Counted from the stretch's first letter, positions 1,831-22,960 are shown. The stretch is 25,440 nt of DNA from Caedimonas varicaedens (GCA_001192655.1 BBVC01000013.1:1-25440); one strand, 5' to 3'. The notes: generated from the sequence alone by a model not told the origin. Program-made: numbers and translations.

Positions 1831-3398
1831 GATGCTTCTCTTTCAAGATCAGCAACAATCCCATCAATTTGTGTGCGCAATTCAGATTGACGATCAACAA
1901 TTTGTGCAATACGAGCATTGAGTTGGGCAATATCCACCACCTCACGGGTGTCTTTTTGTGCTATGTATGTCCCAACACTCAAATTGTAATCATGCGCTAC
2001 AATTTCTGAATGATCCACAAGACGTGAAAAGTGTTCCTGAGTATTTCGATTGATATAGCAATCCAGAATTTTCTTTGTGTTTTTTTCTGTTAATTTATTT
2101 TTAGCAGAACCACGCATAAACTCTTCTTGCGCATCTATGAACAGCGTTGTGTTATCTTTTTTGTTTTTCTTCAAAACGAGGATGCACGTCGCAATGGTTG
2201 TGCCAAAGAAAAGATCAGCGGGTAACTGGATGATCGTATCGATGTAATTGTCATCGATCAGATATTTCCTGATTTTTTGCTCTGCATTTCCTCGATATAA
2301 AATACCCGGGAAACAAACAATCGCCGCTGTACCGTTATTCGCAAGCCAAGCAAGAACATGCATCACAAAGGCAAAATCTGCCTTTGATTTGGGAGCAAGA
2401 ATGCCTGCCTTCGTAAAACGTTTATCATTAATCAGGAGAGGGCTTGAATCCCCATCCCACTTGATGGAATAGGGAGGATTGGAAACAATAGCTTCAAACG
2501 GCTCATCATCCCAATGTTTGGGATCGGTCAGCGTATTCCCATGGGCAATGTTGAATTGTCCATAATTAATGTCATGGAGAAACATATTAATGCGGCAAAG
2601 ATTGTAAGTGGTGATATTTATTTCCTGACCAAAAAAACCATTACGGATATTTTCTTTGCCCAATACTTTGGCAAACTTCAGAAGGAGAGACCCTGAACCG
2701 CACGCAGGATCATACACTTTGTTCACTTTTGTTTTGCCTGCAATCGTAATGCGCGCAAGAAGCTCTGAAACTTCCTGGGGTGTAAAAAACTCACCCCCAG
2801 ACTTTCCTGCATTCGCGGCATACATCGTCATCAGGTATTCATAAGCGTCTCCAAACACATCAATCGTGTGACCGTTATAATCACCCAAACTCAAACTACC
2901 AATCGCGTTCATCAACTTGACAAGCAATTCATTGCGTTGCGTAAGCGTCCCTCCTAATTTATTACTATTGACGTCAATATCGTCAAATAACCCCTGCATG
3001 TTTCTTTCGCTGTCCGTGTCTTTGGCCGAAGCTTCAATATTACGAAAGACTCTCTCGAGGGTTTCATTCAGGTTGATGTCATGATGAGCCTTGATCCTGA
3101 CGTTTTCGAATAATTCACTGGGAGAGATGAAAAACCCTTTATCGTTGATAATAGAGTCGCGACCACGCGCTGCTTTCTCATCGGGAAAAAGAGCATAATT
3201 GAAACCATCTTCTCCTGCTGCCTGCTGTTTTGCGTTGATGTAAGAAGAGAGGTTATCTGAAATAAAGCGATAAAATAACATCCCAAGAACGTATTGCTTG
3301 AAGTCCCAACCATCTATATTGCCACGAAGATCGTTGGCTATTTTCCAGATGGTTGAATGAAGAGCCGCACGTTCTTGTTCTTTTTTATGATCAATCAT
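1827..3398 (-). CDS. hsdM: Type I R-M N6-adenine DNA methyltransferase subunit HsdM
   Basis: HsdM_N-type N terminus (WKIANDLRG...YVLGMLFYRFISD), AdoMet motif VYDPACGSGSLL, catalytic motif VSNPPYSIKW. Confidence 0.95.
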   Translation of the reverse strand: MIDHKKEQERAALHSTIWKIANDLRGNIDGWDFKQYVLGMLFYRFISDNLSSYINAKQQAAGEDGFNYALFPDEKAARGRDSIINDKGFFISPSELFENVRIKAHHDINLNETLERVFRNIEASAKDTDSERNMQGLFDDIDVNSNKLGGTLTQRNELLVKLMNAIGSLSLGDYNGHTIDVFGDAYEYLMTMYAANAGKSGGEFFTPQEVSELLARITIAGKTKVNKVYDPACGSGSLLLKFAKVLGKENIRNGFFGQEINITTYNLCRINMFLHDINYGQFNIAHGNTLTDPKHWDDEPFEAIVSNPPYSIKWDGDSSPLLINDKRFTKAGILAPKSKADFAFVMHVLAWLANNGTAAIVCFPGILYRGNAEQKIRKYLIDDNYIDTIIQLPADLFFGTTIATCILVLKKNKKDNTTLFIDAQEEFMRGSAKNKLTEKNTKKILDCYINRNTQEHFSRLVDHSEIVAHDYNLSVGTYIAQKDTREVVDIAQLNARIAQIVDRQSELRTQIDGIVADLEREAS

Positions 3399-3491
3399 TC
3401 TTTGCCTTTAAATATATGCAGTGGATACCTTGTGTCATGCATAGAGGTTTTGCGTCCCTCACAGGTGTGAAGACTCCAGATCAAACAACAC

Positions 3492-3812
3492 TCAAAAATA
3501 TCTTGAGCGGTCACTCTCTTTTATCTGTATCTCTAAAGATAACTTAACTTTTTGAGATGCTTTGAACGAAACCCGTTTGCGAGCAGAGATCGTAGCCACT
3601 TTTTTGGTTCTGGGATTACGACCGAGCCTTTCTTTTTTGCTCAAAACTCTGAACGTGCCAAAATGGGGTAAAGTTAACCTTTCATCCCGCACGATCCCCT
3701 CTATCATCTGATCAAACAAAAGATCAATCAGGGGAAGAGCTTTAGAGAACGATAAACCCATCTCCTCAGAGATATGCTCGGCTAAACTTCGACGAATCAG
3801 GGTGTCAGACAT
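3492..3812 (-). CDS. HU/IHF-family DNA-binding protein, IHF-alpha-like (pair 1)
   Basis: Signature FGTFRVLSKKERLGRNPRTKKVATISARKRVSFKAS. Its start overlaps the stop of the upstream beta-like gene by 16 nt. Confidence 0.85.
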   Translation of the reverse strand: MSDTLIRRSLAEHISEEMGLSFSKALPLIDLLFDQMIEGIVRDERLTLPHFGTFRVLSKKERLGRNPRTKKVATISARKRVSFKASQKVKLSLEIQIKESDRSRYF

Positions 3813-4111
3813 GATGACCTCTCTCCTTGCTTGCCATTCAGACGATCCTTTAATGTTTTACCAGCTTTAAAAAATAAGATTCTTTTCGTAGAGACAGAAA
3901 CAGATTCTCCCGTTTTAGGGTTACGACCTAATCGTGACTGTCGAACACGAGGACAAAAAACACCAAACCCCCGAATCTCAACACGTTGATCACAATCAAC
4001 CGTATGAACTATTTTTTTTAAAACAAGAGACACCAACGTCTCAATTTGCTTGTCAGATATTTCTGACCCTACCGCAAGGCGCAAGGAAGCCATTAATTGA
4101 GCGCGATTCAT
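3797..4111 (-). CDS. HU/IHF-family DNA-binding protein, IHF-beta-like (pair 1)
   Basis: VEIRGFGVFCPRVRQSRLGRNPKTGESVSVSTKRILFFKAGKTLKDRLNG closely follows the IHF-beta pattern. Confidence 0.85.
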   Translation of the reverse strand: MNRAQLMASLRLAVGSEISDKQIETLVSLVLKKIVHTVDCDQRVEIRGFGVFCPRVRQSRLGRNPKTGESVSVSTKRILFFKAGKTLKDRLNGKQGERSSCLTP

Positions 4112-4233
4112 GATAAAAATAACCTTATCTTTAAAGTCATGTTTAAACCTTATCTTCTTTCAAGGGATCAAGCTTATATTGCATCAGCACAATGATAATC
4201 ATCTCGCTCTTTAGTTTCAAGAGGTTACTATCT

Positions 4234-5664
4234 CTATAAAATATTTAACCGTTTTCTAATCGCCTCAACATCAGGATTCATGGGGTCATGGGGCTTTCGA
4301 GCATTATGCGCTTCAAAGTCCAGCAATAACGCTTCAAGCTTCTCTCTCCCCTTTGCCGTTAAGGCAGCCTTGCGAGGCGTCTTGCCCTGTAATGCCGGAA
4401 GAGGTTCATCAATCCAACTTAACCAGTGTTGTTGACCCATCTGTTCTAAATGAGCTTGAACCTCCGGTAAATGATTCAGAGATTCTATGGGAGTTGAAGA
4501 AACAGACTCCCCAGCAGACATCACCTGATCCAGTGTCTCCATCAGGGTGTTTTGATAAACAGCATCTTCTTGTAAAAGATCCTTGACCAGAGACTGAATC
4601 TTCTCTGCTCTCCCCCGTGAGTTCACAGCAATGGTCAGTTGAGCTTTCTCAATCGTGATATGCCCCATCACCGTATTGTCCCAGCTTTTCATTTTCTCAT
4701 TGCCTTTTTTAAGCCAGCTGAATTCAAGACGTTCAAGGTGTCCCTGCTTGTCTCGTTGGGCATCCTCCAGAATGTCTTCAGCCGTATCATACAGTGTGAG
4801 AAGTAAAAGCCTGGATAATGCTTCTTCGGGTGTAATCTTTAGCTTGAAATGAACCTTGCAAAATTCCATGGGTTCATTATCTGTATTTCGCATCTCCGGC
4901 AAGGGATTGTTATGCTCATGTAAGACGGCCTGTAAAGCCCAGGCTCGCAATTCGTTGTCAACGTCTCTCATCAAGGCAGGCGTGAGAGCTTTCTTTCTGA
5001 ACATCTTTTTTAAACTGTCTTTGACGTCAATCAGCTGTAAATGATAATGAGAGGAAATCACATAGGGTAACATACCAGAACTAATAGATTGATCATCCAG
5101 ACAAACAAGGCGCGTAAAAACAATATGACCTTTTTCTAAAAACTGAGTCCCTTGTTTTTCTTTAATAGTGTGTTCTGTTCCAAGGAAAATATCTTTCAGA
5201 TGAACGCTTTTTTCAGGAACAACATCCAACACATAGTAAAAGCTATAATAACTTTGACAAAAAGCTTCCAACACTCTCTTTTGGTAAGGTGTCAGGGTAT
5301 AGCCCCTCCTCTCAAGATACTGCAGACCAATTTCTTTTTCTGGAACATAGTCCATGCGAGGAATCCAGGTAAACAGAAACCACGGGATGAATAAGGTGGG
5401 GACTAAAAGCTCCTCAACATCTTCAGGAACTTCTTCTCCCGCTTTAAACTCTTCAAGAGCTGTCTTCATGATGTCTCGGGGAAGATGACTATTCACATAA
5501 GGAAGTAAAATATCACCAACAAGCTCTCCTTCTGTCTGACGAATTTTACGCCATGAGAAATCCAGAATATCGTCAGAAGCCGTCATACAGCATTTTTTAT
5601 GTTTTTTTCCGCTTCCGCAAGGACAAAGGTCATTGCGACCTGTTTTGAGATGATGAACCGTCAT
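4234..5664 (-). CDS. SEC-C metal-binding-motif protein of unknown function, with an Xre/MbcA/ParS (DUF2384)-like C-terminal segment
   Basis: N-terminal CPCGSGKKHKKCC (SecA C-terminal zinc motif). The C-terminal WLSWIDEPLPALQGKTPRKAALTAKGREKLEALLLDFE resembles the DUF2384 toxin-binding domain, recognised from memory only. Confidence 0.7.
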   Translation of the reverse strand: MTVHHLKTGRNDLCPCGSGKKHKKCCMTASDDILDFSWRKIRQTEGELVGDILLPYVNSHLPRDIMKTALEEFKAGEEVPEDVEELLVPTLFIPWFLFTWIPRMDYVPEKEIGLQYLERRGYTLTPYQKRVLEAFCQSYYSFYYVLDVVPEKSVHLKDIFLGTEHTIKEKQGTQFLEKGHIVFTRLVCLDDQSISSGMLPYVISSHYHLQLIDVKDSLKKMFRKKALTPALMRDVDNELRAWALQAVLHEHNNPLPEMRNTDNEPMEFCKVHFKLKITPEEALSRLLLLTLYDTAEDILEDAQRDKQGHLERLEFSWLKKGNEKMKSWDNTVMGHITIEKAQLTIAVNSRGRAEKIQSLVKDLLQEDAVYQNTLMETLDQVMSAGESVSSTPIESLNHLPEVQAHLEQMGQQHWLSWIDEPLPALQGKTPRKAALTAKGREKLEALLLDFEAHNARKPHDPMNPDVEAIRKRLNIL

Positions 5665-5960
5665 GCCTTCCTCTAAACGTTCTTTAAATCACTAGGGCTT
5701 ATAAATCATTTTTACGGTCAAGATTCAAGAAAGATAAAAAAGGGATTCACATTACTCAAGAAATATGGTTGAGTGAAGAAATATATTTTTAAGGGTCAAT
5801 GATGTCTCAAACCTATTGCAAATCAACACTTTCTTGGAATTCTGCCACCAATTCAACTTCTGGGAAAGTTCGGTTGGTGGGCGCTACACCATTTTCTGGA
5901 CATCTGAACCCGCACTCACTCTCACAGTCAAGTCTTAATTTTACCCTAAATCCAGCAAAA

Positions 5961-6057
5961 TATCATAATTCTATCATAAACTGCCGAAGGCTTTTTGCAA
6001 AGAATCGTTTTATTCCAAGCGATTGCGAGCGATCTCTCTATCATAATTCTATCATAA
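5961..6057. repeat. Two copies of the 19-bp direct repeat TATCATAATTCTATCATAA (5961..5979 and 6039..6057), each containing TATCATAA twice
   Basis: Read directly. Located 35-130 bp upstream of the integrase start codon. Confidence 0.9.
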
Positions 6058-6091
6058 TCTCACGCAAAGAACCCATATGGAGGAATAGGAT

Positions 6092-7080
6092 ATGAATCGT
6101 CTAAAAATCACCAACACCATGATTGAAAAAGCGCAACCCAACGGCAGAGCTTACGCCCTTGCCGACGCGGTTGTTCCCGGTCTTTTGGTTATTATTAACC
6201 CTTCGGGGGTGAAGACGTTTTGTTTGCGATTACAAAGTTTCAGAAAGAAGCTGGGCGTTTATCCTTACGATAAGATTGAGGTCGCCCGCCAGAAAGGCAT
6301 TGAGTGCCATTCTGAACATTTACAGGAGATCCGTATGAAAAATTAGCGCAAAGACCTCAACCTTACCCTGCCCGTCCATAAACTGGTGGAAGAATACCTT
6401 GAGTTTAAGAAAAGCTCTTTATCGGAGAAAACGTGGAAAGAATACACTTATACCTGGAACAAGTGCGGACGAGATAAATTAGGCGACATCTTTATCCCCA
6501 ACCTCACCGATGCTCATGTGAACGCACTCTTTATTCAACTCAAGGATACGTATTCCCACACAGAAACTCTGAAGATTATTCTTCTGGCTGCTTTTAAATA
6601 CGGCAAACAGAAAGGATATCCTGTTGCTGTTTTAGATGGGGAAAGCTGGGTGCGATATAAGCGGCCGGTTAAGGAACGGTATTTAACGTCGGGAGAGTTG
6701 AGCGCGTTTGCTGGTCTCATGGCAGAACGTAAAAGTCGTTCTGTTCCTTATGGCAAACTTCCCCAGCAGATGATTGCTATGGAACTGCTTTTATATACAG
6801 GCTGCCGATGTTCCGAGATTCTGGAGCTTAAATGGTCGGATATTTTTTTCAAGGAAGGTTATCTTCAGCTTTGGAAGACCAAGACCCGCAAGGGACGGTT
6901 GATCCCCTTATCGGATAAAATCCGATCCTTACTGGAGGAAGCCCGTCAGTTTGAAAGTGGGGTGTCTTTTGTGGGGAATATCGAGCAGGTTCTCCTCTTG
7001 TTTCAGTCGGCTTACTTTCTCTTTAAGGATGAACTCTCAAAAATCACCGATCACGGATTGAGGAAATTTTCCCACTGGGA
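6092..7080 (+). pseudogene. int: P4-type tyrosine integrase, degraded (in-frame TAG at 6344..6346, catalytic C terminus missing)
   Basis: Arm-binding DUF4102-like N terminus (LKITNTMIEKAQPNG...GLLVIINPSGVKTFCLR). The frame continues after the TAG into a SAM-like domain and catalytic box I (LLLYTGCRCSEILELKWSDI). A possible HxLR box (DHGLRKF) is present, but there is no LGH...Y tail. The 3' boundary is approximate. Confidence 0.8.
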
Positions 7081-7393
7081 TCATTTCAAGGCAGAAGCCG
7101 TTCAGACTCTGGATCAGGAATATACATCTCTGGTGAAGTTTGTTGAAACCTATCATGATAAGACGCCCCATGCGTTGGAGAAAATAAGGCAGGTTTGCCA
7201 ATTCACAGAAGAGGAGGCGGATGTCATTGTCACTACGGCGCATAAAGCCAAGGGGAGACAGTGGGATCAGGTCTGTCTTAACGATGATTTTAAACAGAAT
7301 ACATCGGAAGAACTGAATATTTTTTATGTGGCCTTAACCCGCGCTGTGTCTGTGCTTGATCTCTCTAAAATCAAGGCGGACATGCGGTTTTAG
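7081..7393 (+). pseudogene. C-terminal fragment of a UvrD/PcrA-like SF1 helicase, fused in frame to the integrase remnant
   Basis: VIVTTAHKAKGRQWDQVCLNDDF...LNIFYVALTRAVSVLDL matches the UvrD_C terminal motifs. No Walker A/B helicase core is present upstream. The 5' boundary is approximate. Confidence 0.7.
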
Positions 7394-7413: not shown

Positions 7414-7956
7414 ATGACGGAGAAAATGATTGTGCAGGAGAGGGGTGTTGATCGCTTGTCCTTCTTGAGGGTAGGTTATGCGTGCCTGATCTTTGGGCTT
7501 TCTGCCATGATTCATGATGTTAATGCTCGGCAGGACGTCAGAACAGAGCAAAACATCCAGGTCTGTTTTACGCCCCGGAAGCAATGTTTGCCCCTCATCT
7601 TGGGAGAGATTCGCAAGGCGAGAAAAGAGATTTTGGTTCAGGCTTATCAACTCACCTCAAAATCTATAGCCCGGGCTTTGCAGGAAGACCACCTGAGAGG
7701 GGTATCCGTGATGATTTTAGCGGACAAATCCCAGGAAGTATCCCGCTATAGTCAGATTCCTTTTCTGACTCAGGCAGGAATTGACGTGAGGATAGATGAT
7801 CGGGTAGCTATTGCCCACAATAAGGTGATCCTCATTGATGGACACATCCTCATAGGCGGCTCCTACAATGATTCCGAGTCTGCGGAGAAGAGGAATGCGG
7901 AAAACCTTCTGATCATCCGAGATCACGGGGTCATTGCAGAATACAGGGAGAATTAG
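7414..7956 (+). CDS. Phospholipase D-family endonuclease (Nuc-like), probably exported
   Basis: Single HKD motif (AHNKVILIDGHILIGGSYNDSESAEKRNAENLLII). Hydrophobic N-terminal segment VGYACLIFGLSAMIHDVNA. Overall layout resembles plasmid Nuc. Confidence 0.85.
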   Translation: MTEKMIVQERGVDRLSFLRVGYACLIFGLSAMIHDVNARQDVRTEQNIQVCFTPRKQCLPLILGEIRKARKEILVQAYQLTSKSIARALQEDHLRGVSVMILADKSQEVSRYSQIPFLTQAGIDVRIDDRVAIAHNKVILIDGHILIGGSYNDSESAEKRNAENLLIIRDHGVIAEYREN

Positions 7957-9516: not shown

Positions 9517-9603
9517 AGGGGGAAGATCAGGATGCTTGTGATGCTATCGCATCACGACGCAAAAAAATTAAGCTAAAGCTTTCCCGTCTGGAAGACGGGG
9601 GTT

Positions 9604-9753
9604 TTAACCACCAAGAGGACTATCAAGGTGAAGTGGCTCTTCACACCGAGCGGGAACTATATATAGTTCATCATCGTCTGGTTTAATGACGAATTTACAC
9701 GCTTCATTGATCAAGTTATAAAACTTGATCTTTCCAGTATGAGTACCTTTCAT
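9604..9753 (-). CDS. 49-aa ORF with degenerate cold-shock-domain N terminus (possibly a relic)
   Basis: My translation is MKGTHTGKIKFYNLINEACKFVIKPDDDELYIV.... Compare GKVKFYDVHKSYGFITPDD of the CSD gene at 11763..11981. It is below the ORF-track length cut-off. Confidence 0.35.
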   Translation of the reverse strand: MKGTHTGKIKFYNLINEACKFVIKPDDDELYIVPARCEEPLHLDSPLGG

Positions 9754-9778
9754 CTCACATATTTTCCTAAAATTACAA

Positions 9779-10084
9779 TTATCCGTTCACCGCTTCCTTC
9801 AGCTTACTGCCAACCTTGAACACGACCCGCTTAGAGGCTGGAATATTCAAAGCTTCGCCTGTTCTGGGATTACGTCCTGTGGTTGCCTTGCGCTCTTGCA
9901 CTTCAAACGTTCCCCAACCCACCAAAGGCAGTTTCTTGCCTTCCTTGAGCATAGCGGTAATGCTGTCTAAAACCGCTGTGAGGTATTCTTTCGCGTCTTT
10001 CTGGGTTGAACCCTTCAGATCAGCGATCTTGTCGATTAGGTCGTCTTTTGGTGATTTTGTTTCAATCATGTCATGACCTTTCAC
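9779..10084 (-). CDS. HU-type DNA-binding protein
   Basis: LVGWGTFEVQERKATTGRNPRTGEALNIPASKRVVFKVGSKLKEAVNG. GTG at 10084 overlaps the upstream stop (GTGA). An alternative ATG lies at 10069. Confidence 0.85.
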   Translation of the reverse strand: MKGHDMIETKSPKDDLIDKIADLKGSTQKDAKEYLTAVLDSITAMLKEGKKLPLVGWGTFEVQERKATTGRNPRTGEALNIPASKRVVFKVGSKLKEAVNG

Positions 10085-10377
10085 TTTTTAGAATTTGTTA
10101 GAGTTTTATCATCCTGAATGGTTTTCAGCTTTTCTTGGCAGATTGAGAGTTCGGCTTGCAATTTGGTAAGAGCCTCTAGAGAAGTGTCCTTGCCTTTTTT
10201 GTTCAATTCAAGGGTTTCTTCCATCTGCATTTTTTCTGACTGCCAAGCCTTCTTTTCTTCTCGAAGCTGAATCAGTTCTTTTTGCTCTTCCGTCGATAGC
10301 TTGTTAGCTGTTCCGTCACAGCCTGCCAGCAATGTCGTCATGAGCATTCCTGCTATCAATTTCTTCAATTTAATCAT
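10081..10377 (-). CDS. Small coiled-coil lipoprotein
   Basis: Signal peptide plus lipobox (MLMTTLLAGC), then a K/E/Q/L-rich helical sequence. ATGA overlap with the upstream gene. Confidence 0.7.
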   Translation of the reverse strand: MIKLKKLIAGMLMTTLLAGCDGTANKLSTEEQKELIQLREEKKAWQSEKMQMEETLELNKKGKDTSLEALTKLQAELSICQEKLKTIQDDKTLTNSKK

Positions 10378-10681
10378 TTTTCTGCCTTTTCATTGTTGTC
10401 ATTGATTTTCAACTTTAACCCTTGAGAGACGCTAAAAGAAACCGTACGGCGTGGTGTAATCATTACATCCTCTCCCGTTCTAGGATTTCTGCCTAAACGC
10501 TCTCCCTTTGACAAAACATCAAAAGTCCCAAAGCCAGATAGCATCAGCTTCCCATCATGAACAATGCCGTCTGCCATACGGGCAAGCGTCAAGTCTATAA
10601 ATTTTCTCACTGTGCTGGTCTGATTCCTGTCTTTTCAGAGAGGATGTTCACCAGTCTATCCCGTGTCAGGCTATCGCTCAT
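10374..10681 (-). pseudogene. IHF-alpha-like gene (pair 2) interrupted by a 1-nt frameshift
   Basis: ATG at 10681 gives MSDSLTRDRLVNILSEKTGIRPAQ then a stop. The next frame continues VRKFIDLTLARMADGIVHDGKLMLSGFGTFDVLSKGERLGRNPRTGEDV. The two parts align colinearly, residue for residue, with the pair-1 alpha protein. The 308-nt span is not a multiple of 3. Confidence 0.75.
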
Positions 10682-10982
10682 CTGTCCACCTTACCTCTGG
10701 CTTCTTGCCATTCAAGTGTTCTTTCAGGTCTTTGCCTGCTTTGAAACGCATCACTTTTCTATCGGGAACAGTCACAGGTTCCCCTGTTTTAGGATTACGT
10801 CCCTTGTGCGCAGGTCTATGGCGAGGATAAAAGGTGCCAAAGTTTCTCAATTCAACCCTTTGCCCCTTCTCTAGGGCACAAACAATCTCGTCGAGCATCC
10901 CAGAAACAATCATCTCTGCCTGTACAGGCGTAATCTCAAAAGTCCAGTCAGCTACCTTTTGGATGAGTTCAGATCTGGTCAT
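10671..10982 (-). CDS. IHF-beta-like DNA-binding protein (pair 2)
   Basis: RVELRNFGTFYPRHRPAHKGRNPKTGEPVTVPDRKVMRFKAGKDLKEHLNG. ATG at 10982 (MTRSELIQKV...) is preferred over the longer track ORF. Confidence 0.85.
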   Translation of the reverse strand: MTRSELIQKVADWTFEITPVQAEMIVSGMLDEIVCALEKGQRVELRNFGTFYPRHRPAHKGRNPKTGEPVTVPDRKVMRFKAGKDLKEHLNGKKPEVRWTDER

Positions 10983-11766
10983 TTTTAGTGATTCTCTCAA
11001 AATTATCAAAAGCATATTTAGCCATACTCAACAAAGACGATAAGCTCACATAAGCATGAAAATCTTCCATGTAGGGAACGTCTCCATGTACACTATCGTT
11101 TCTCCAAATAGACAATTTATCATTGAAACTTTGCAGACGATTTTTAATATCGTTTTTTCCTTGAGCAAGGTCATCTATAGCTTTGTTTTTTCCATTGTTT
11201 TCTTTAAAAACTTTACACGTTCTCTCTTCGCCAAATTTCACTTTATGCAAATGACGCAAGATAGACTCTCCAGATGCGCCAGACATAGCGCACGTTGCTA
11301 TGTAAAGACTGAACTGATAGCAATTCGCTGCCTCTATACCCCAAACCAGATAATCAGCACCCAGCTTGTCTTTGAATCCTTGTAGTAGGGAGGCATAGGA
11401 TGAAGAAAAGCCGAAAACAAAACGTGTCTCATCACCACTAAGCAACCATTCTTTACCCACTTCTGTAAAAGTATAATATCTAAAGTACGCGAAACTACTA
11501 AATGATATATTATTATCATTTCTAGTGCTTTGCCTCAGAATGCCTCTTCTCCTTAAATCCCATAAAGCATCCAATATAAGCGCATTCCCTGAATGCTCTT
11601 GCTCTGTATGAGTTTGATAATTTGATGGTATGATGTCACAGCTTGAAAAGTCAAATTTTCTTACATCTGAACCATAACCACGTTTGATCGGATTTTTCAG
11701 AATATTGCGAAGAGAGTTTATGACGAAACTCATAGCATCATTAGAATTTTTCATGACTTGATTCAT
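10969..11766 (-). CDS. Winged-helix-like plus HEPN-domain protein (putative RNase/abortive-infection-type effector)
   Basis: Canonical Rx4H motif R222-N-D-S-V-H227 (11086..11103) about 40 aa from the C terminus, within predicted helical context. No other family recognised. Confidence 0.6.
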   Translation of the reverse strand: MNQVMKNSNDAMSFVINSLRNILKNPIKRGYGSDVRKFDFSSCDIIPSNYQTHTEQEHSGNALILDALWDLRRRGILRQSTRNDNNISFSSFAYFRYYTFTEVGKEWLLSGDETRFVFGFSSSYASLLQGFKDKLGADYLVWGIEAANCYQFSLYIATCAMSGASGESILRHLHKVKFGEERTCKVFKENNGKNKAIDDLAQGKNDIKNRLQSFNDKLSIWRNDSVHGDVPYMEDFHAYVSLSSLLSMAKYAFDNFERITKNDQI

Positions 11767-11981
11767 GGTTCTAACAACTTAATCTGGCAAGCAATCGACT
11801 TACCCTTCACTTCTTTCAGCTCGTAGCTCACTTTTTGGTGTTCCCCCAGAAAATCAAGTCCCGATTCCTGTAATTCACGGAAATGAACGAAGATGTCCTT
11901 GTCACCTTCCTTGTGATCGTCTGGCGTAATAAATCCGTAGCTCTTGTGAACATCATAGAATTTGACCTTGCCTCTGGGCAT
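11763..11981 (-). CDS. Cold-shock-domain protein (72 aa)
   Basis: MPRGKVKFYDVHKSYGFITPDD...IFVHF contains RNP1- and RNP2-like motifs. AAGGAG lies upstream of the ATG at 11981. Its stop overlaps the HEPN start (ATGA). Confidence 0.85.
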   Translation of the reverse strand: MPRGKVKFYDVHKSYGFITPDDHKEGDKDIFVHFRELQESGLDFLGEHQKVSYELKEVKGKSIACQIKLLEP

Positions 11982-12081
11982 AAAACTTCTTACTCCTTGA
12001 AAAAGATCATTTGTCAGCATCATGTAAGGAAATGGTTGGCTTGTCAAACAAGTTTTGTGTAAAACCATAGAAAAATCGTTT

Positions 12082-12579
12082 CTATGCCTTGCGCCAGCTA
12101 TATCGTCTATTCTCAAGTCGTTGTTCCAGTAAACCCTCTTCATGCAATCGGTAAAGATGCCGTCTCAGATGACAGACGCTGAGCGAAATATGAGGAGTGA
12201 TGTCACCTATAAAAATGTAACCTTCTCTGGTTTTCATAAAATCTAATATCTGATTTGATATCTTTTCAGCTTGTATGGTTTTCAAGAGATGCTCTTCAGA
12301 AGGTTTGTCAGCTTTTCCAACGGGTTTTTTGCGAATTTTAGCACTCTCACTGCTTTTCAAAATGACAGCCTCTACATATTCAATCTCACGAGGGGAAATT
12401 TTGTGTTTATCGATGAACGTCCTGTATTCCTTGAACGCTTGCCGTAATTTGGTTTCATGACGTGCGCTCCTCGTCAAAAAATAGAGGTTTCTTAATCCCT
12501 CATAGGTTCGTTTGAGTTTTTTCAGTTTTTCAAGGGTCTCCAAATCCTTGTCCTTTCTCGTCATTGGAAACACGAGCAT
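12082..12579 (-). CDS. Hypothetical protein with C-terminal winged-helix DNA-binding-like domain
   Basis: ILDFMKTREGYIFIGDITPHISLSVCHLRRHLYRLHEEGLLEQ...RRYSW looks like a wHTH. The start is uncertain: TTG 12723, ATG 12579 or ATG 12564. Confidence 0.5.
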   Translation of the reverse strand: MLVFPMTRKDKDLETLEKLKKLKRTYEGLRNLYFLTRSARHETKLRQAFKEYRTFIDKHKISPREIEYVEAVILKSSESAKIRKKPVGKADKPSEEHLLKTIQAEKISNQILDFMKTREGYIFIGDITPHISLSVCHLRRHLYRLHEEGLLEQRLENRRYSWRKA

Positions 12580-12788
12580 AGGCGAAAAGATACCTGCTTC
12601 GCAACAAGAGACCAGTAAAAATCTAAGGTTTTCGGTTAAACGCGCTTTAAGATGCAACAGAGAAGGTAAAAAGAGTTTATACCCCCCTCTCTTAACTTTG
12701 CTGTACGTTAATCCTGGAGGCAAATGGAGTGACCTTCATTTGCCAAAACGACACAGGCAGTGCGTCGAGCAATACAAAATAGTCAAGT

Positions 12789-12808
12789 GCTAATGACAGC
12801 TAATGACA
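12789..12808. repeat. 10-bp tandem direct repeat GCTAATGACA x2 in a divergent intergenic region
   Basis: Read directly. Lies between the wHTH gene (minus) and folB (plus). Confidence 0.85.
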
Positions 12809-14626: not shown

Positions 14627-16447
<1,821 letters not shown>

Positions 16448-16796: not shown

Positions 16797-17827
16797 ATGA
16801 TTCAGTGGGAACAAACGATGGAAATAAAAATATTACGCCGACAAGGCAAGAGTCTAAGAAGGATCGCTCATGAGGTTGGTATGGCCGTGAATACAGTTCG
16901 TAAATATCTCCAACATGAAGGCAGACCTTTTTATAAGAAGAGAAAAACGGTTGAGACTAAACTTGATCCATATAAACCTTATTTGCAAGAAAGGGTCAAA
17001 CAGGCTCGCCCTTTTTGTCTTCCTGCAACGGTTTTGCTACGGGAGATACGCGATCAAGGATATAGGGGTGGCGTGACACAATTAAGGTTATATCTGAATT
17101 CTTTAACCCCTGTGGTCTGTGAGGAAGTCGTTAGATTTGAAACAGAACCAGGCGCACAAATGCAGATGGATTGGATTGAATTTCGAAAAGGGAAAAACCC
17201 TCTATCCGCTTTTGTCGCAACCCTTGGTTATAGTCGGGTCAGCTATGTCTGCTTTGTGGAGAATGAGAAATTATCGACATTACTTCAATGCCATGAAGAT
17301 GCATTTGATTATTTTGGCGGTATCCCCTCTCAAGCCCTTTATGACAATATGAAGACTGTTATTCTGGCAAGAGATGCCTATGGTTTAGGGAAGCATCGCT
17401 TTAATTCTGGGATGTTAGATTTTGCCAAGCATCATGGATTTCAACTGAAAGTGTGTCGTCCTTATCGCGCCAAGACGAAAGGAAAAGTAGAGAGATTTAA
17501 TCGTTACTTGCGTTACAGCTTTTATAACCCTCTTGCTTCTCGGCTTAAAAGTGCAGGTCTAACACTCGATGTTCAAACCGCTAATATGGAAGTTTTAAAG
17601 TGGTTAAAAGAAACAGCTAATCAGCGTGTTCACGGCACCACAAAAGAGGTTCCTCTTGAAAGGTTAGAAAGAGAACGTTCGACTTTGCAGCCTCTTGGGC
17701 TTCCTTATCGAGGAGATGTTTCATTAGCTCGTTGTGTTAAAGAGCCAGAGATTAAAGCTCCTGAATGGGCTCCTCACAACCCCCTTCAGCATCCTCTTTC
17801 TGTTTACGACAGAATTCTGGAGGCAGC

Positions 17828-17831
<4 letters not shown>
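16797..17831 (+). CDS. istA: IS21-family transposase IstA (intact, copy B)
   Basis: N-terminal HTH (ILRRQGKSLRRIAHEVGMAVNTVRKYL) and a DDE integrase-type core. 344-aa uninterrupted ORF. Confidence 0.9.
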
Positions 17832-18630
<799 letters not shown>

Positions 18631-18704
18631 ACCCTTATTTTTTTATCTCAGGTGTATCAATTTTCATCCGAGGATTTTTAAAAATCTGTATCAAATTTCA
18701 GCCG

Positions 18705-19019
18705 ATGTTGACATTAGAGATTTATCAAACTGAAAATGGAAAAAGCCCTTTTATAGAATGGATAGATTCCTTTGATAATCTTGAAGTTGTAGCCAAAATA
18801 AACGCTCGGTTACTGAGGCTGCGTTTAGGAAATATAGGTGATTGTAAATCTCTGGGGGAAGGATTATTTGAACTTCGGATTGACACAGGACCTGGATACA
18901 GAATTTATTTTTTGAATGGAGATACTCAAAAAATCCTTCTGTTAGGGGGAATAAAAAAGACGCAAATGCGAGATATAAAAAAAGCGAAAAATTATTTAAG
19001 TGATTACAGGAGTAGATAA
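18705..19019 (+). CDS. higB: HigB/Gp49-like RelE/ParE-superfamily toxin, 5' end remodelled by the IS insertion
   Basis: IYQTENGKSPFIEWIDSF...GDCKSLGEGLFELRIDTGPGYRIYF...ILLLGGIKKTQMRDIKKAKNYL matches addiction-module killer proteins. The ATG TTG ACA start codons come from the IS terminus. Confidence 0.8.
   Translation: MLTLEIYQTENGKSPFIEWIDSFDNLEVVAKINARLLRLRLGNIGDCKSLGEGLFELRIDTGPGYRIYFLNGDTQKILLLGGIKKTQMRDIKKAKNYLSDYRSR
18708..18713 (+). promoter_or_regulatory. Perfect outward-facing -35 hexamer TTGACA at the IS right terminus (also at 87..92 and, on the minus strand, at 14533..14538)
   Basis: The last 6 nt of the IS. IS21 is known to form hybrid promoters from a terminal -35. No strong -10 is evident at 17 bp spacing here. 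Confidence 0.35.
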
Positions 19020-19020
19020 A

Positions 19021-19314
19021 ATGAAAAAAAGTGTTTCTTATAAAGATTATCTTTCAAAATCTTTAAAAGATCCTAGCGCAGCGGCAGAGTATCTTAACGC
19101 AGCCCTTGAGGAAGGAAATGAAGCGTTTACCTTAGCTTTAAAAGATGTTGTCAAAGCTTTGGGTGGAAGCGTCTCTCATATTGCGTCGCAGGCAAACCTT
19201 AATCGGGAAAGCTTATATAAGACATTATCAGTGAAAGGTAATCCTCATCTCAGAGGCCTTAATGCCATTATAAAATCCTTAGGCTTACAACTTCATATCA
19301 CGCCTCGACCTTAA
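19021..19314 (+). CDS. higA: HigA-type antitoxin (addiction-module antidote protein, HTH)
   Basis: YLSKSLKDPSAAAEYLNAALEEGN...GGSVSHIASQANLNRESLYKTLSVKGNPHLRGLNAIIKSLGLQL. AGGAG lies upstream of the ATG at 19021. Confidence 0.85.
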   Translation: MKKSVSYKDYLSKSLKDPSAAAEYLNAALEEGNEAFTLALKDVVKALGGSVSHIASQANLNRESLYKTLSVKGNPHLRGLNAIIKSLGLQLHITPRP

Positions 19315-19334
19315 AAAGGACGGATTGATCAACT

Positions 19335-19799
19335 TCATCCTTCCTCTCTTTCCTGATCCATTGCCCAATACAGAAGTGCTAGGGCATCGGCTTCGTTATC
19401 ATCATAGGGATGATGTCCCCATTTTTTCACCGCCTCTATCATCTCAAACTTGCCGGCATTGCCCTTGCCTGTGGCAAACTTTTTAATCGTTCCAACAGGA
19501 ACCCCCTGGTAGGGAATGGTGTGATGTTCACACCACGCCGCCAGATGACCTATAAAACCCCCATAAACATGGGCTGCATCCACCCCTGCATGCCGTCGAA
19601 CAGCCTCAAAATAAACGGCATCTAAACCCCCTGCATGATATTTCATCTCGGTGAGCATTTTCTTGAATTTAAGAAACCGCATGCCCCAATTCTCAAAACG
19701 ACCTGTCTTGAATTCCATAGAACCACTGGTAATCCCATCAGAGGTGGCAATCGCCCATCCTGTGGTCGTTCCCAGATCAAGGGCAAGCAGTGTGGACAT
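19335..19799 (-). CDS. Phage-type RuvC-like Holliday-junction resolvase
   Basis: LALDLGTTTGWAI, VYFEAV and DDNEADALALLYWA provide the acidic catalytic positions. Confidence 0.8.
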   Translation of the reverse strand: MSTLLALDLGTTTGWAIATSDGITSGSMEFKTGRFENWGMRFLKFKKMLTEMKYHAGGLDAVYFEAVRRHAGVDAAHVYGGFIGHLAAWCEHHTIPYQGVPVGTIKKFATGKGNAGKFEMIEAVKKWGHHPYDDNEADALALLYWAMDQEREEG

Positions 19800-20432
19800 T
19801 TAAAACATCATCTCCTCAAGTTTGACATAAGCCAAGGTGCGTAAAGAAACATCCGCTTTGGTCAAAACGTCCAGAAGCCTTCTTTTTTCTCGAAGATAAA
19901 CTTTGGCAAAAGCAGGATCACACTGAACAATGGAGGCTGTATTGCTCATGACATCACAGACCTTGATGTCCTGAATCCATGCGCTCTGACGGGATAACCT
20001 CTCTCTGGACTGTCGTTTCCGTTCTTTCCTGTTCCCCTGTTCTAGATCGGAAAGTGCCAAAACTCCTTCAGCAACGAGTCGTCCAAACCTTTGACAAATG
20101 TACTCAAACGTTACAGGACAATCCTCCAAACAATCATGAAGCCAGGCCACCGCCATAACCTCCGGATCGTGATGAAGGGTGCTCACCATCCCGGCTACTT
20201 CTGCGAGATGAAGCCAGTAAGGCTCACCGTTATATCTCCTTTTCTGACCCTCATGAGCTTGCAGAGCAAAAATCATGGCGTCATGGGCAACCGGACGTTT
20301 CAGAGGGACAACCTTCCTCAGAGGAACCACCAAGAATTCTCCTGCTTTTCTCATGATCCGGGGATTGAATGCCTCAAGAGAAGGGGATGGCCTTGAGGTC
20401 AAGGGTTCTGCAGGGTCATAGGGTGTGTTCAT
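19800..20432 (-). CDS. SpoT/RelA-type HD-domain hydrolase (small alarmone hydrolase-like)
   Basis: AHEGQKRRYNGEPYWLHLAEVAGMV and AWLHDCLEDCP form the HD motif. Confidence 0.75.
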   Translation of the reverse strand: MNTPYDPAEPLTSRPSPSLEAFNPRIMRKAGEFLVVPLRKVVPLKRPVAHDAMIFALQAHEGQKRRYNGEPYWLHLAEVAGMVSTLHHDPEVMAVAWLHDCLEDCPVTFEYICQRFGRLVAEGVLALSDLEQGNRKERKRQSRERLSRQSAWIQDIKVCDVMSNTASIVQCDPAFAKVYLREKRRLLDVLTKADVSLRTLAYVKLEEMMF

Positions 20433-20478
20433 GATGATTTCCTTTCCATGAGTTAAAAATTGTTAAAAAATCGACATA

Positions 20479-21164
20479 TCATCTTGATAGGTCGATGGGA
20501 TCGACAGGTTCTTCTTTCTTCATCTGTTCTTGCCCATAACAAAACCTCTCAAAACTACATCCAAAGCAGGAGAGCGGCTTTTTCTCAAAGGCCATGAGTC
20601 CCAAAGGCATCTCCTTCTGCTCATGGAGACGCTCTGCTTTGGCCATAAAGGTTTCGCCTACAGAAGGATCAAGGTCGATGACTTCTTCGTACAAAGACTC
20701 ATCATTTTTATTGATAGCCAGCAGAAGGGCTTTCTTGATGTCGTCAGACAAGAAGAGATACATTTGACATTGCACCCAATAGCCAACTGGGATTTTTGAA
20801 CCCCGTGTTTTCTGAGCTCCTTAAATGCTTCGTCATTCATGGTCTTGATCTCAAGGATGTACCTTGTGCCGTCCTCATATCCAATGATAGCGTCTATATT
20901 ACCCTTAAGAATACCTTTTTGAACAGGATGCTGAATTTTTTCAATTGTCCAACGGTCAACTTTGCTCAACAAGGAAAAGATCCGACTTTCTTCTATCATC
21001 CCCCGTTCAAAGATGCGCTGCTTTCTGAAGGGGATTTCCAGGGTGAGATCCCCATACTTCTGCAGCCAGATATAGCGGTCACACGGATGTCCAATGATGG
21101 AGCAGCCTAGATAACCTCTGGTTTTTTGGACGGTTGTCAGCTTTTCAAATTCTTCAATGAGCAT
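20479..21164 (-). pseudogene. Cas4/RecB-like PD-(D/E)XK nuclease with a 4-Cys cluster, frameshifted near 20790..20805
   Basis: N-terminal Cys (GHPCDRY), D...EIK core (GNIDAIIGYEDGTRYILEIK), GYWVQCQMYL in the second frame, and C-terminal CFGCSFERFC. The frames switch at the T5/C4 runs. Confidence 0.7.
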
Positions 21165-21438
21165 GGTGACCCCTTTCTCTCAGAACTGATAAAAAGAGTT
21201 CCCGTTCTCCTTGAGAACTGTCCAAAAGATAAGCCTCTAAACATGAATCAAATAAATCCTGTCTTTCCAGAACATAGGCCAGGACGCAACCCAGAAGATG
21301 ATTCCAGGAACCCTCTTTTTGAATCATCATCACAGGTTCATCATCAGAGAGATGGAGGAGAATATCTTCTGTTCCAAGAATCAGCTCCTCACTGTCAACA
21401 TTCTTTAGGGAGTTGAGGGATTTGTGTCTTTTCGTCAT
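21154..21438 (-). CDS. Hypothetical acidic 94-aa protein
   Basis: ORF in operon context, with an ATGA overlap with the upstream small ORF. No recognisable motif. Confidence 0.4.
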   Translation of the reverse strand: MTKRHKSLNSLKNVDSEELILGTEDILLHLSDDEPVMMIQKEGSWNHLLGCVLAYVLERQDLFDSCLEAYLLDSSQGERELFLSVLRERGHHAH

Positions 21439-21578
21439 TGCCTGTGTCCTTTATCTTTTCTCAATTTTTTTTTAGGGGCAGCAGCCTCATAATATTTAAC
21501 GTTTGTAATCTCAGGAGCTTTCGTGCGTCTCTTCCATCCCCTGAATAACTGTTTTAAAAATGCTTTGAGTTTCTTCAT
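21435..21578 (-). CDS. Hypothetical 47-aa highly basic protein
   Basis: GGAAGGAG lies 8 nt upstream of the ATG at 21578. Sequence MKKLKAFLKQLFRGWKRRTK.... The longer track ORF overlaps the DUF669 tail and is unlikely to be real. Confidence 0.4.
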   Translation of the reverse strand: MKKLKAFLKQLFRGWKRRTKAPEITNVKYYEAAAPKKKLRKDKGHRQ

Positions 21579-21594
21579 TCTCAAGACTCCTTCC

Positions 21595-22113
21595 TTACCA
21601 GGGCAGTTCATCGTTGAAGAGATCAGCCGTGGACTCAGGCTGTTGAGGTAAGGCAAATCCTGCATTTGTCGAGGTTGTCTGCTTTTTCCCGTTGTCCTGC
21701 TTTCCCTTGTTTTTCTTGTCTTTGTCTTCAGGGCGAATACGGCTCACAATGTAAGGGGTCATGCCGCCGTCATTGTTCTCGAAGTTTTTCATCCTCACAT
21801 AGGCTTTCTTGCGAACCACCTTGGAAAACACATACTCCGCGCCATCATCGTCATCGGTCATCTGTGACCAGAATTTTTGAAGCTTGACCTCTGCTTTTTC
21901 TCTGAGTTCATCAATGTCCGAGAAGACATTGAAGTTTTCCCATTTCATGCGTCCTTTATAGTCCGCAGGCTCCAATATTTGCCATTGCACCTGAATGGTA
22001 GAGCCATACAGGCTATTCACTTTTTCCATCTTGAGGATCTCGGCCAGATATTCTCCGTCAGGAAAAGCGTTCTCATCGGTGGACACGCGCTTAAAGGGTT
22101 TGAGTTGCGTCAT
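21595..22113 (-). CDS. DUF669-like phage ssDNA-binding protein with an SSB-type acidic tip
   Basis: Sits in the typical position downstream of the AAA_24 gene. C-terminal ...ADLFNDELPW resembles the SSB tail. AAGGAG lies before the ATG at 22113. Confidence 0.6.
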   Translation of the reverse strand: MTQLKPFKRVSTDENAFPDGEYLAEILKMEKVNSLYGSTIQVQWQILEPADYKGRMKWENFNVFSDIDELREKAEVKLQKFWSQMTDDDDGAEYVFSKVVRKKAYVRMKNFENNDGGMTPYIVSRIRPEDKDKKNKGKQDNGKKQTTSTNAGFALPQQPESTADLFNDELPW

Positions 22114-22960
22114 TTTCTGTTTCTCCTTCACTTGTTAAGGTTGTTAATGCGTAAAAACGCGTGACCGCAGCCATGAAAGTCTCCCAATCCAGAGGTATTT
22201 CTGTCTCTAGATCGTAGACATTCTTGGCCACATAGGCGGTATTGCCTTCGGTGTAGAGGACACGGGTGTCATCAGCGACCGCCCTTGCCCTCTTTTGTTT
22301 GAATCCCTTGTCATCTTGTTCCAGGGTGATCCTGTTCATGGCATAGAAAATACAGTGCGCCCAATCGCACAAGACGGCTGCGGCTCGTTCCTGAACACGC
22401 AGGTCGATCTTGTCATAGACTTGCACCAGAGGATTGTCACACCTTTTGCGAGCGCAGTGGCCGATAAGGATGACATTCATCTTTTTCTTCTGCCGAAGAT
22501 CATCCAGCAGATTCAAAAGGGTGCGAAACAGGTTGGCAGCATGGACATATTTCTTGCCGTACTGAAGCTCCTTGTCATCTTTTTCTGCTTCCAAGGTTTC
22601 CCAGATGTATTCTTCCAGTTTGTCGATGGAATCAATCACCACAGTCTTGTAGGGATGGGACAACAGCAGCAGGCATCTTAAAAACTCCTCCACTTCGGCA
22701 AAAGAAAACAGGGCTTGTTTCCCCACATCCAGATGGTCAATATTGCCTTCCAGATCCAGAAAGATGGGTTTCTTGGCACCCGATGCAAAGGTGGATTTCC
22801 CCACCCCATTGGCTCCATAGATTATGAGCTTGAGGGGCGTTCTTTCCTTGCCTTGTTTGACGGGCTTTCCTTTGAAGGAAAAGACAGGGATGTCTTCTTG
22901 CTTGTCAGGGACAGCAGCTTCTTGGAGAGGCCTCTCCTGCTCAGGATTTGTTAGCATCAT
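22091..22960 (-). CDS. AAA_24 / Sak4-like RecA-fold ATPase (phage recombination/annealing)
   Basis: Walker A LIIYGANGVGKSTFASG followed by PIFLDLEGN, and Walker B VVIDSID. Confidence 0.75.
   Translation of the reverse strand: MMLTNPEQERPLQEAAVPDKQEDIPVFSFKGKPVKQGKERTPLKLIIYGANGVGKSTFASGAKKPIFLDLEGNIDHLDVGKQALFSFAEVEEFLRCLLLLSHPYKTVVIDSIDKLEEYIWETLEAEKDDKELQYGKKYVHAANLFRTLLNLLDDLRQKKKMNVILIGHCARKRCDNPLVQVYDKIDLRVQERAAAVLCDWAHCIFYAMNRITLEQDDKGFKQKRARAVADDTRVLYTEGNTAYVAKNVYDLETEIPLDWETFMAAVTRFYALTTLTSEGETENDATQTL

Follow-up and report, generated by a model that had tools for sequence, protein, structure and literature searches.

RAZR (PD-T7-4) is a single-gene abortive-infection RNase that joins a zinc finger to a DUF4145 HEPN domain (PMC13017515), and Ishtar is a monogenic HEPN (DUF4145/DUF3644) system that acts against plasmids (bioRxiv 10.64898/2026.07.06.735840). 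The part of the superfamily survey that defines HEPN domains (PMC3710099) describes them as all-α, up-down helical bundles, which form metal-independent RNases from a composite site in the dimer and are recognized by an Rx4-6H motif, a polar residue (N, D or H) after the arginine and, often, a second acidic residue within Ex3[KR]. As described in the portion of that survey that deals with DUF4145 (PF13643), HEPN domains of this family are fused to restriction-modification (R-M), helicase, zinc-ribbon and helix-turn-helix (HTH) modules (Anantharaman et al. 2013, PMC3710099). CoCoNuT type IV restriction systems bring HEPN nucleases and OB folds resembling the cold-shock domain (CSD) together in one predicted RNA-targeting locus (PMC11090510). 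Here, we describe a minus-strand operon, and the 265-amino-acid (aa) protein with a winged helix-turn-helix (wHTH) and a HEPN domain that it encodes, within a stretch of 25,440 nucleotides (nt) of Caedimonas varicaedens DNA (GCA_001192655.1, BBVC01000013.1:1-25440), referred to below as the window.

The wHTH, CSD and HEPN genes of this locus had been put forward in an earlier note as a dedicated conflict cassette. This proposal is not supported, since in the loci sampled CSD-HEPN adjacency is absent outside this locus and one near-identical metagenome contig (L001, 99.8% identity); the two genes have come to be neighbours by accident, in a single lineage. On comparative analysis, we consider it probable that positions 9604-12800 constitute a mobile-element nucleoid-protein operon carrying a facultative, stand-alone wHTH-HEPN sensor-RNase gene, and the family to which the 265-aa protein belongs is a plausible monogenic defence candidate.

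A word-index search with the 265-aa protein returned two homologues only, and an exhaustive profile search recovered the family: 335 cluster representatives (50% identity), 256 of them at E < 1e-10, that span more than 15 phyla, are nearly all 255-285 aa long and are matched over their full length. The sequence read earlier as a canonical Rx4H motif, R-N-D-S-V-H, lies at residues 222-227, 38 residues before the C terminus. In an alignment of 75 family members R222 and H227 are invariant in all 75, as are E167 and G163 and, in the N-terminal part, T101 and G104. The residue after R222 is N or D in almost all of these sequences (two exceptions carry T and G). The family consensus at the motif is YWRDxAAHG, preceded by EAxxC…CCAMxGAAAESILL; E167-x3-R171 is present in the window protein and in a homologue on contig L002, and most other members have L at the +4 position. 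This pattern of Rx4H, N/D and E167 fits the HEPN definition as given in the relevant part of the published survey (PMC3710099).

Profile and structural comparisons point to the same assignment. DUF4145 is matched weakly by 26 of the 75 members at E ≤ 0.1 (best 1.1e-4), single members match HEPN_MAE_28990, Apea and RiboL-PSP, and one member matches DUF3644. A profile search of the PDB gave weak matches of the Csx1/Csm6 type ('WRNSVAHG') and a PadR match over residues 57-124. An AlphaFold (AF2) model based on the 75-sequence alignment reached a predicted local distance difference test (pLDDT) score of 88.2 (with a 3-sequence alignment the pLDDT was 45 and the model unusable). Its N-terminal half consists of a helix and then a winged helix (helix 55-73, strands 77-80 and 97-100, helix 102-110), and residues 121-260 are all helical. 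Foldseek returned no match at E < 1e-3 for this model; the matches that superpose well are all HEPN structures, namely 2q00 (probability 1.0, TMt 0.72, root-mean-square deviation (rmsd) 3.2 Å), 1ufb, 1wol and the sacsin HEPN domain 3o10, which are the best domain-level matches and have weak E-values (0.17-1.4). The winged-helix segment that the earlier note read ahead of the HEPN motif and a HEPN-like helical bundle are both seen in the model. Conservation and model together support the 265-aa protein as a predicted winged helix joined to a DUF4145-like HEPN domain with putative RNase activity. Members of the family are currently annotated as 'hypothetical protein' only; no Pfam family covers them at threshold, and their PADLOC matches are neither recurrent nor significant.

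The neighbourhoods of family members were sampled at 88 loci, of which 80 are in genomes of more than 15 phyla (Planctomycetota, candidate phyla radiation, Cyanobacteria, Legionella, Acidobacteriota, Spirochaetes, Bifidobacterium and others), 7 in annotated metagenomes and 1 on a plasmid. An adjacent CSD gene occurs in none of these 88 loci; within 4 kb, one of the 80 genome loci has a CSD, which is 3.5 kb away and not adjacent, and none of the 80 has an HU or IHF gene. No neighbour family recurs, the most frequent being Phage_integrase (4/150 immediate neighbours) and TIR_2 (3/150), and no MNT or other known antitoxin gene adjoins the HEPN gene in the operon, as the earlier note had stated, or the other family members. 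At the 7 annotated metagenome loci solitary HEPN genes lie near integrases, type I R-M, RelE/MqsA, HNH, NB-ARC, and UvrD or superfamily 1 helicase genes. Two large plasmids hold a family member annotated 'hypothetical', one of them among toxin-antitoxin (TA) genes, and the annotated neighbourhoods include a cyanobacterial plasmid; no member was found in phage genomes. A genome scan with the close alignment gave nothing, and the 75-sequence alignment was too diverse for pattern scanning. A same-strand open reading frame (ORF) of ~220 aa that ends just 5' of the HEPN gene in many loci was considered as a hidden partner and rejected, as these ORFs share no similarity with one another and several are spurious high-GC frames. 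In Anabaena azotica (L062 3312-3677, L069 3234-3671) the wHTH-HEPN gene directly follows a nifH fragment, which suggests carriage on an element that interrupts nifH and is excised during development.

A single homologue of the 265-aa protein is moderately diverged (60% identity). It is encoded on contig L002, where the HEPN gene is followed, through an ATGA overlap, by an IHFβ/IHFα-like pair, and no CSD occurs within the 317 nt upstream. The HEPN-IHFβ junctions of L002 and the window are homologous, with homology unbroken across the junction. The operon in the window comprises the following features, from its first gene onward.

12082-12579, minus strand: putative wHTH gene, 165 aa, the possible winged helix being C-terminal; first gene of the operon, with a longest ORF reaching TTG 12723 (213 aa).
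11763-11981, minus strand: CspA-family cold-shock-domain protein, 72 aa; PF00313 at 3.1e-17, 62.6 bits; annotated as CspE, GAO97648.1.
10969-11766, minus strand: 265-aa protein, PadR-like winged helix (N-terminal) followed by a DUF4145-like HEPN domain (C-terminal); GAO97647.1, Cva_00283, annotated 'hypothetical'.
10983-11762, minus strand: insertion-deletion (indel) segment of 780 nt with ATGA at both edges; present in the window and L001, missing from ten related cassettes.
11086-11103, minus strand: Rx4H motif R222-N-D-S-V-H227, R and H being invariant in the 75-sequence alignment.
10671-10982, minus strand: IHFβ-like protein, 103 aa; GAO97646.1, annotated 'IHF subunit beta'; Bac_DNA_binding at 1e-30.
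10374-10681, minus strand: IHFα-like gene, frameshifted by a 1-nt deletion near 10618-10619.
10081-10377, minus strand: small coiled-coil lipoprotein, 98 aa; signal peptide and lipobox LLAGC as read from the sequence.
9779-10069, minus strand: HU-like protein, 96 aa (101 aa from GTG 10084); Bac_DNA_binding at 1.2e-29.
9604-9753, minus strand: ORF of 49 aa whose N terminus is CSD-like over a short stretch (10/21 residues as in the CSD); also called as a gene in L001.
9583-9599, minus strand: 7-bp GC-rich hairpin just past the last ORF, with a U-run ~15 nt beyond (RNA fold, z = -2.0).

Comparison with related cassettes shows that the HEPN gene is an extra element in this operon. Ten such cassettes, on nine contigs, contain the CSD, IHFβ-like, IHFα-like and lipoprotein genes and sometimes the HU gene; none of the ten has a HEPN gene, and in all ten a single ATGA is common to the CSD stop and the IHFβ start. 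They are 83-99% identical to the window at the nt level (84-98% in the CSD gene). Five of the contigs, from metagenomes (L012-L016, 92-98% nt identity), are colinear with the window from 12808 to 11763 and then continue directly at 10982. Their junction, CCATGACCAGA, recurs in both tandem cassettes of contig L017 and in L018 and L019; for the tenth cassette (GCA_041443045.1, a 4433-bp NCBI contig) the junction was placed from gene coordinates alone. Because these relatives jump directly from CSD to IHFβ through one ATGA, window positions 10983-11762 correspond to a precise 780-nt indel. At 36.4%, its GC content is below that of the adjoining CSD and IHF genes (44-47%). To judge from these junctions, the conserved and apparently translationally coupled partner of the CSD is the IHFβ-like gene.

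At the nt level, the window's IHFβ gene shares 98-99% identity with those of the HEPN-less contigs L012 and L013, 83-88% with those of the HEPN-less contigs L017 and L018, and just 63% with that of the HEPN-bearing L002. Two gains at the same junction, or an old linkage of HEPN and IHFβ that was lost repeatedly by precise deletion from ATGA to ATGA, would explain these relationships about equally well. A foreign origin of the HEPN insert at some stage is favoured by its low GC content and the mobility of the family, and under either polarity of the indel the HEPN gene appears to be facultative for the operon.

The tight packing of genes described in the earlier note was confirmed by ORF reading of the window, in which the minus-strand ORFs span 12723 to 9604. 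The CSD stop and the start of the 265-aa gene share the ATGA at 11763-11766, the 265-aa stop (10969-10971) falls inside the IHFβ-like gene, 14 nt past its ATG at 10982, the β gene runs 11 nt into the α gene, its stop overlapping the α ATG (10681), and the α-frame stop and lipoprotein ATG share the ATGA at 10374-10377. Pfam likewise recovers the CSD (3e-17) and nucleoid-protein genes that had been read there (Bac_DNA_binding three times, at 1e-30, 6e-23 and 1e-29). Other parts of that description need revision. The overlap of the lipoprotein stop with a GTG in the GTGA at 10081-10084 is real, and its use as the HU start is only optional, because the gene call in L001 starts HU at the equivalent of ATG 10069 (96 aa). 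The '213-aa' upstream protein is the longest frame, from a TTG; its homologues are 161-178 aa long and start MLVFPMTRKD (12579 in the window), and the winged helix proposed for it stays putative, with sub-threshold matches only (HTH_5 0.07, FaeA 0.16, Csa3 5e-4). The closing mini-ORF described as a decayed CSD does resemble the CSD, over just 21 residues, 10 of them identical (E = 8e-4, from a single sequence). Since L017 shows tandem cassettes, this 49-aa ORF is possibly a remnant of the first gene of another tandem cassette. The hairpin at 9583-9599 is a possible operon terminator; a consensus terminator scan did not detect it. Consensus promoter and terminator scans of the window were uninformative, and RNA scans found no Rfam family and no tRNA in it.

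The IHFα-like gene, listed in the earlier note among the overlapping genes, has a frame that is broken in the window and whole in relatives. Alignment to L001 reveals one base lost near 10618-10619 (window AGACCAGC, L001 AGAGCCAGC); because of the missing base the frame from ATG 10681 ends after 24 codons, and the remainder of the gene can be read only with GTG 10610 as its start. An intact copy (102 aa) is present in L001, and the gene is also whole in L012, L013 and L017. The frameshift may mark a genuine pseudogene or an error of the draft assembly.

The order 165-aa gene, CSD, IHFβ-like, IHFα-like, lipoprotein and HU is conserved. The 165-aa protein has six homologues (75-99% identity), in this lineage only, and its gene precedes the CSD in L012, L017, L018, L019 and GCA_041443045.1; the lipoprotein gene keeps its place behind IHFα in L012, L013 and L017, and HU is kept in L017 and GCA_041443045.1. 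Scored against named families, the CSD reaches 62.6 bits with PF00313 (threshold 27) and 56.8 bits with its best named model, CspE (cut-off 120), and by these scores the 72-aa protein is a CspA-family member rather than an equivalog of any named Csp. It also matches, weakly and below threshold, the models for the retron Se72 effector (26.8 vs 82 bits) and for PADLOC CSD_V (1.3e-9), and the CspE and CspA models score higher. The best NCBIfam matches are 100.8 bits for IHFβ (cut-off 115), 84.6 bits for IHFα in the intact L001 version (cut-off 111) and, for the HU-like protein, 78 bits with HU-β (cut-off 157). We read the operon as a mobile-element set of nucleoid-associated proteins, which on family knowledge may serve in DNA bending for recombination, replication or transfer and in RNA chaperoning.

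C. varicaedens is a Holosporales symbiont of Paramecium. In L017 the CSD-IHFβ-IHFα-lipoprotein cassette is duplicated in tandem (2543-6937), and the cassettes neighbour ResT/TelK-like (protelomerase-type), PIN, ParE and TraY genes; the duplication also repeats the 3' end of an 819-aa ORF without a Pfam match (4114-4266). The 4433-bp contig GCA_041443045.1 encodes, in order, a 178-aa protein, CSD, IHFβ, IHFα, an 86-aa protein and HU, then a 123-aa gene and a short GapR-like ORF, one more nucleoid-protein gene in the cluster. L001 additionally encodes TraD and a MobA/TraI relaxase. Viral contigs in IMG/VR commonly carry HU/IHF-like genes. When viral and metagenome sequences were scanned with the IHFβ alignment, the matches listed were all generic HU/IHF proteins at ≤55% identity, and none of 80 viral loci has a CSD adjoining HU/IHF genes.

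Elsewhere the window has type I R-M genes, an integrase/UvrD chimera, PLD and Rpn nucleases, IS21 copies, a TA pair and a phage-type replication module. A second IHFβ-like (3797-4111) and IHFα-like (3492-3812) pair, on the minus strand and 44% and ~24% identical to the first, lies downstream of a gene for a 476-aa SEC-C-motif protein with a weakly ParS/Xre-antitoxin-like C terminus (3492-5664 region, minus strand); as this pair sits below the SEC-C-motif gene, IHF pairs recur behind different upstream genes. The plus-strand ORF at 6386-7393 combines a truncated tyrosine-recombinase domain with a UvrD C-terminal domain, and L001 homology begins at 6961; its L001 equivalent is a 486-aa UvrD helicase, which marks this ORF as a rearrangement break point. 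The PLD/NucT-like gene at 7414-7956 (plus strand) has a 6-nt in-frame indel at 7844, CATCCT being present in L001 and missing in the window. The IS21 copies, one on the minus strand (14627-15990, istB and truncated istA) and one on the plus strand (16797-18630, istA and split istB), abut folB-folKP genes, and synteny with L001 stops at 14532. Beyond them are a Gp49/HI1420 TA pair (18627-19314), an HD_4 (SpoT-like hydrolase) protein (19800-20432) and, within 18627-25232, a replication module of DUF669, AAA_24 and a 763-aa PriCT_2/DUF3987 primase-helicase.

We propose the following model. The operon would belong to a mobile-element pool of Caedimonas-related Holosporales, where it is found repeatedly, at times as tandem copies, near integrase, protelomerase-like, TA, Tra and relaxase genes, and the C. 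varicaedens copy has an extra HEPN gene placed exactly in the ATGA junction that otherwise couples CSD to IHFβ. Through the ATGA overlaps this gene could borrow promoter and ribosome loading from its host operon. The HEPN protein would work alone, with the CSD and IHF/HU proteins mere operon-mates rather than dedicated partners. Its HEPN domain would dimerise to form a composite RNase site that is silent at rest, the winged helix or the N-terminal part would sense nucleic acid or an invader cue, and the triggered protein would cleave RNA and arrest growth, resulting in abortive defence or mobile-element competition. This mechanism is modelled on RAZR and Ishtar, the characterised monogenic HEPN systems, which act in this way.

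Other explanations were weighed against this model. The CSD and the wHTH-HEPN protein could be a dedicated two-component RNA-targeting system, in which the CSD is antitoxin, RNA presenter or sensor and the upstream wHTH protein a regulator. The ATGA shared by CSD stop and HEPN start in the window and L001 implies co-transcription and probably translational coupling, the weak matches to the retron Se72 effector and PADLOC CSD_V suggest that CSD proteins can serve defence, and CoCoNuT systems unite CSD and HEPN (PMC11090510), a precedent for the combination itself. Yet the same ATGA joins the CSD straight to IHFβ in the ten HEPN-less cassettes, the L002 HEPN gene has no CSD, the 88 family loci lack an adjacent one, and the pairing is limited to two near-identical sequences, so that we regard such a system as highly improbable. 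The HEPN protein could instead be tied functionally to the IHFβ/IHFα-like pair, as a nuclease that the element's DNA-bending proteins recruit or restrain, or as a guard triggered when they are disturbed, in the service of element maintenance or exclusion. This would account for the gene order and ATGA-type overlap common to the window and L002 (60% identity between the HEPN proteins, 63% nt identity between the IHFβ genes), and one distant family member has an HU gene ~0.6 kb away. Such a tie is unlikely given that HU or IHF genes are absent within 4 kb at the 80 genome loci, that IHF pairs stand without HEPN in the ten cassettes and at 3492-4111 in the window, and that the linkage has two independent instances only, both in one narrow lineage. 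The 265-aa protein might instead be the operon's transcription factor, with a winged helix and a helical ligand or dimerisation domain (GntR/FCD, PadR or TetR type) rather than a nuclease; its N-terminal winged helix would suit this role, and FCD-family, TetR-family and MukF structures are among the weak full-length Foldseek matches. Those matches are poor (rmsd 15-18 Å), and their TM-scores of 0.13-0.23 rule out a resemblance to MukF, GntR-FCD or TetR. Moreover, the invariant residues are those of the HEPN definition (Rx4H, the polar residue after R, the conserved acidic residue), members match DUF4145 and other HEPN models rather than regulator effector domains, and the HEPN gene is dispensable for the operon, all of which makes a regulator very unlikely.

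The cassette could also be a decaying remnant without current function in this strain, as the IHFα-like frameshift, the truncated CSD-like ORF at the 3' end and chimeric or fragmented neighbours (6386-7393, the IS21 fragments, an hsdR N-terminal fragment) would suggest. The remaining operon genes are nevertheless all intact and 92-99.8% identical to intact copies in independent metagenomes, and the frameshift could be an assembly error; we think decay quite improbable. Also distinctly unlikely, in our estimation, is a reading in which the ~265-aa wHTH-HEPN family forms a widespread and undescribed kind of one-protein sensor-RNase module for immunity or exclusion, with the Caedimonas copy coupled through start/stop overlaps into the chromatin operon of a mobile element. 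Its dose would then follow that of the CSD and IHF-like proteins, which might hold it in check, or whose disturbance by an invader it might guard against. Several observations weigh against our preferred reading of a facultative, stand-alone wHTH-HEPN gene in a nucleoid-protein operon. The window protein itself falls below the DUF4145 (PF13643) gathering threshold (12.9 vs 23.1 bits, E = 0.12) and has no PADLOC or NCBIfam match. Insertion here and precise deletions elsewhere fit the indel about equally well, and the HEPN-IHFβ-IHFα order common to two lineages leaves room for some functional tie to the IHF pair. Finally, the IHFα-like frameshift hints at an operon decaying in this strain, or at a draft error.

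The interest that remains is modest and lies in an unannotated, widespread wHTH-HEPN family and in its cassette-like gain or loss within a coupled operon. Should its members prove to be active nucleases, the family would extend the monogenic HEPN defences, RAZR and Ishtar among them, by a compact, winged-helix-sensing type. The 780-nt indel between ATGA copies illustrates how a toxic-type gene may be gained or lost with the translational coupling of the operon undisturbed, and the CSD-IHFβ-IHFα-lipoprotein-HU gene row points to a nucleoid-protein toolkit that mobile elements of Holosporales symbionts bring with them.

Among described systems, RAZR follows the same plan as the 265-aa protein: in one small protein, a domain of nucleic-acid or sensor type at the N terminus precedes a DUF4145-like HEPN domain at the C terminus. 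Neither RAZR, whose R and H are catalytic, nor the 265-aa family has an antitoxin gene, and both are patchy across phyla. The two differ in that the N terminus of RAZR is a Cys4 zinc ribbon and that of the 265-aa protein a PadR-like winged helix, and in the motif spacing (R146/H154 in RAZR, Rx4H here). RAZR is activated by ring assembly. PD-T7-4 was matched by none of the 75 members, in keeping with the lack of a PADLOC match for the window protein. Ishtar, too, is a patchily distributed single HEPN gene with a role in conflict between mobile elements and hosts, which the 265-aa family may share; compared by description, Ishtar has its HEPN domain N-terminal and a β-rich domain C-terminal, whereas here the HEPN domain is C-terminal. 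DUF4145 is the best profile match of the family, with a similar EA…/…E…/R-[ND]-x3-H pattern and with members near R-M and helicase genes, and the ~265-aa wHTH-HEPN architecture is not among the DUF4145 architectures of Table 1 in the survey (PMC3710099), the part considered here, which includes a SIGMA-HTH fusion. The toxins of HEPN-MNT and RnlA/LsoA pairs likewise contain a HEPN RNase-type domain with Rx4-6H, but these pairs have a cognate antitoxin, and none lies beside the 265-aa gene or the family members at 80 loci. The CSDs of CoCoNuTs are fused to McrB/McrC-like proteins in large multi-gene systems, whereas here a free 72-aa CSD stands beside an IHFβ-like gene. Nucleoid-protein genes are carried by plasmids, integrative conjugative elements and phages, examples being Pmr, Phu and Pnd of pCAR1, Sfh of R27 and TF1 of phage SPO1. 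The elements described here resemble these in bearing their own HU, IHF or H-NS-type proteins, and differ from them in the coupled CSD-IHFβ-IHFα-lipoprotein-HU order, which was found only in this narrow lineage.

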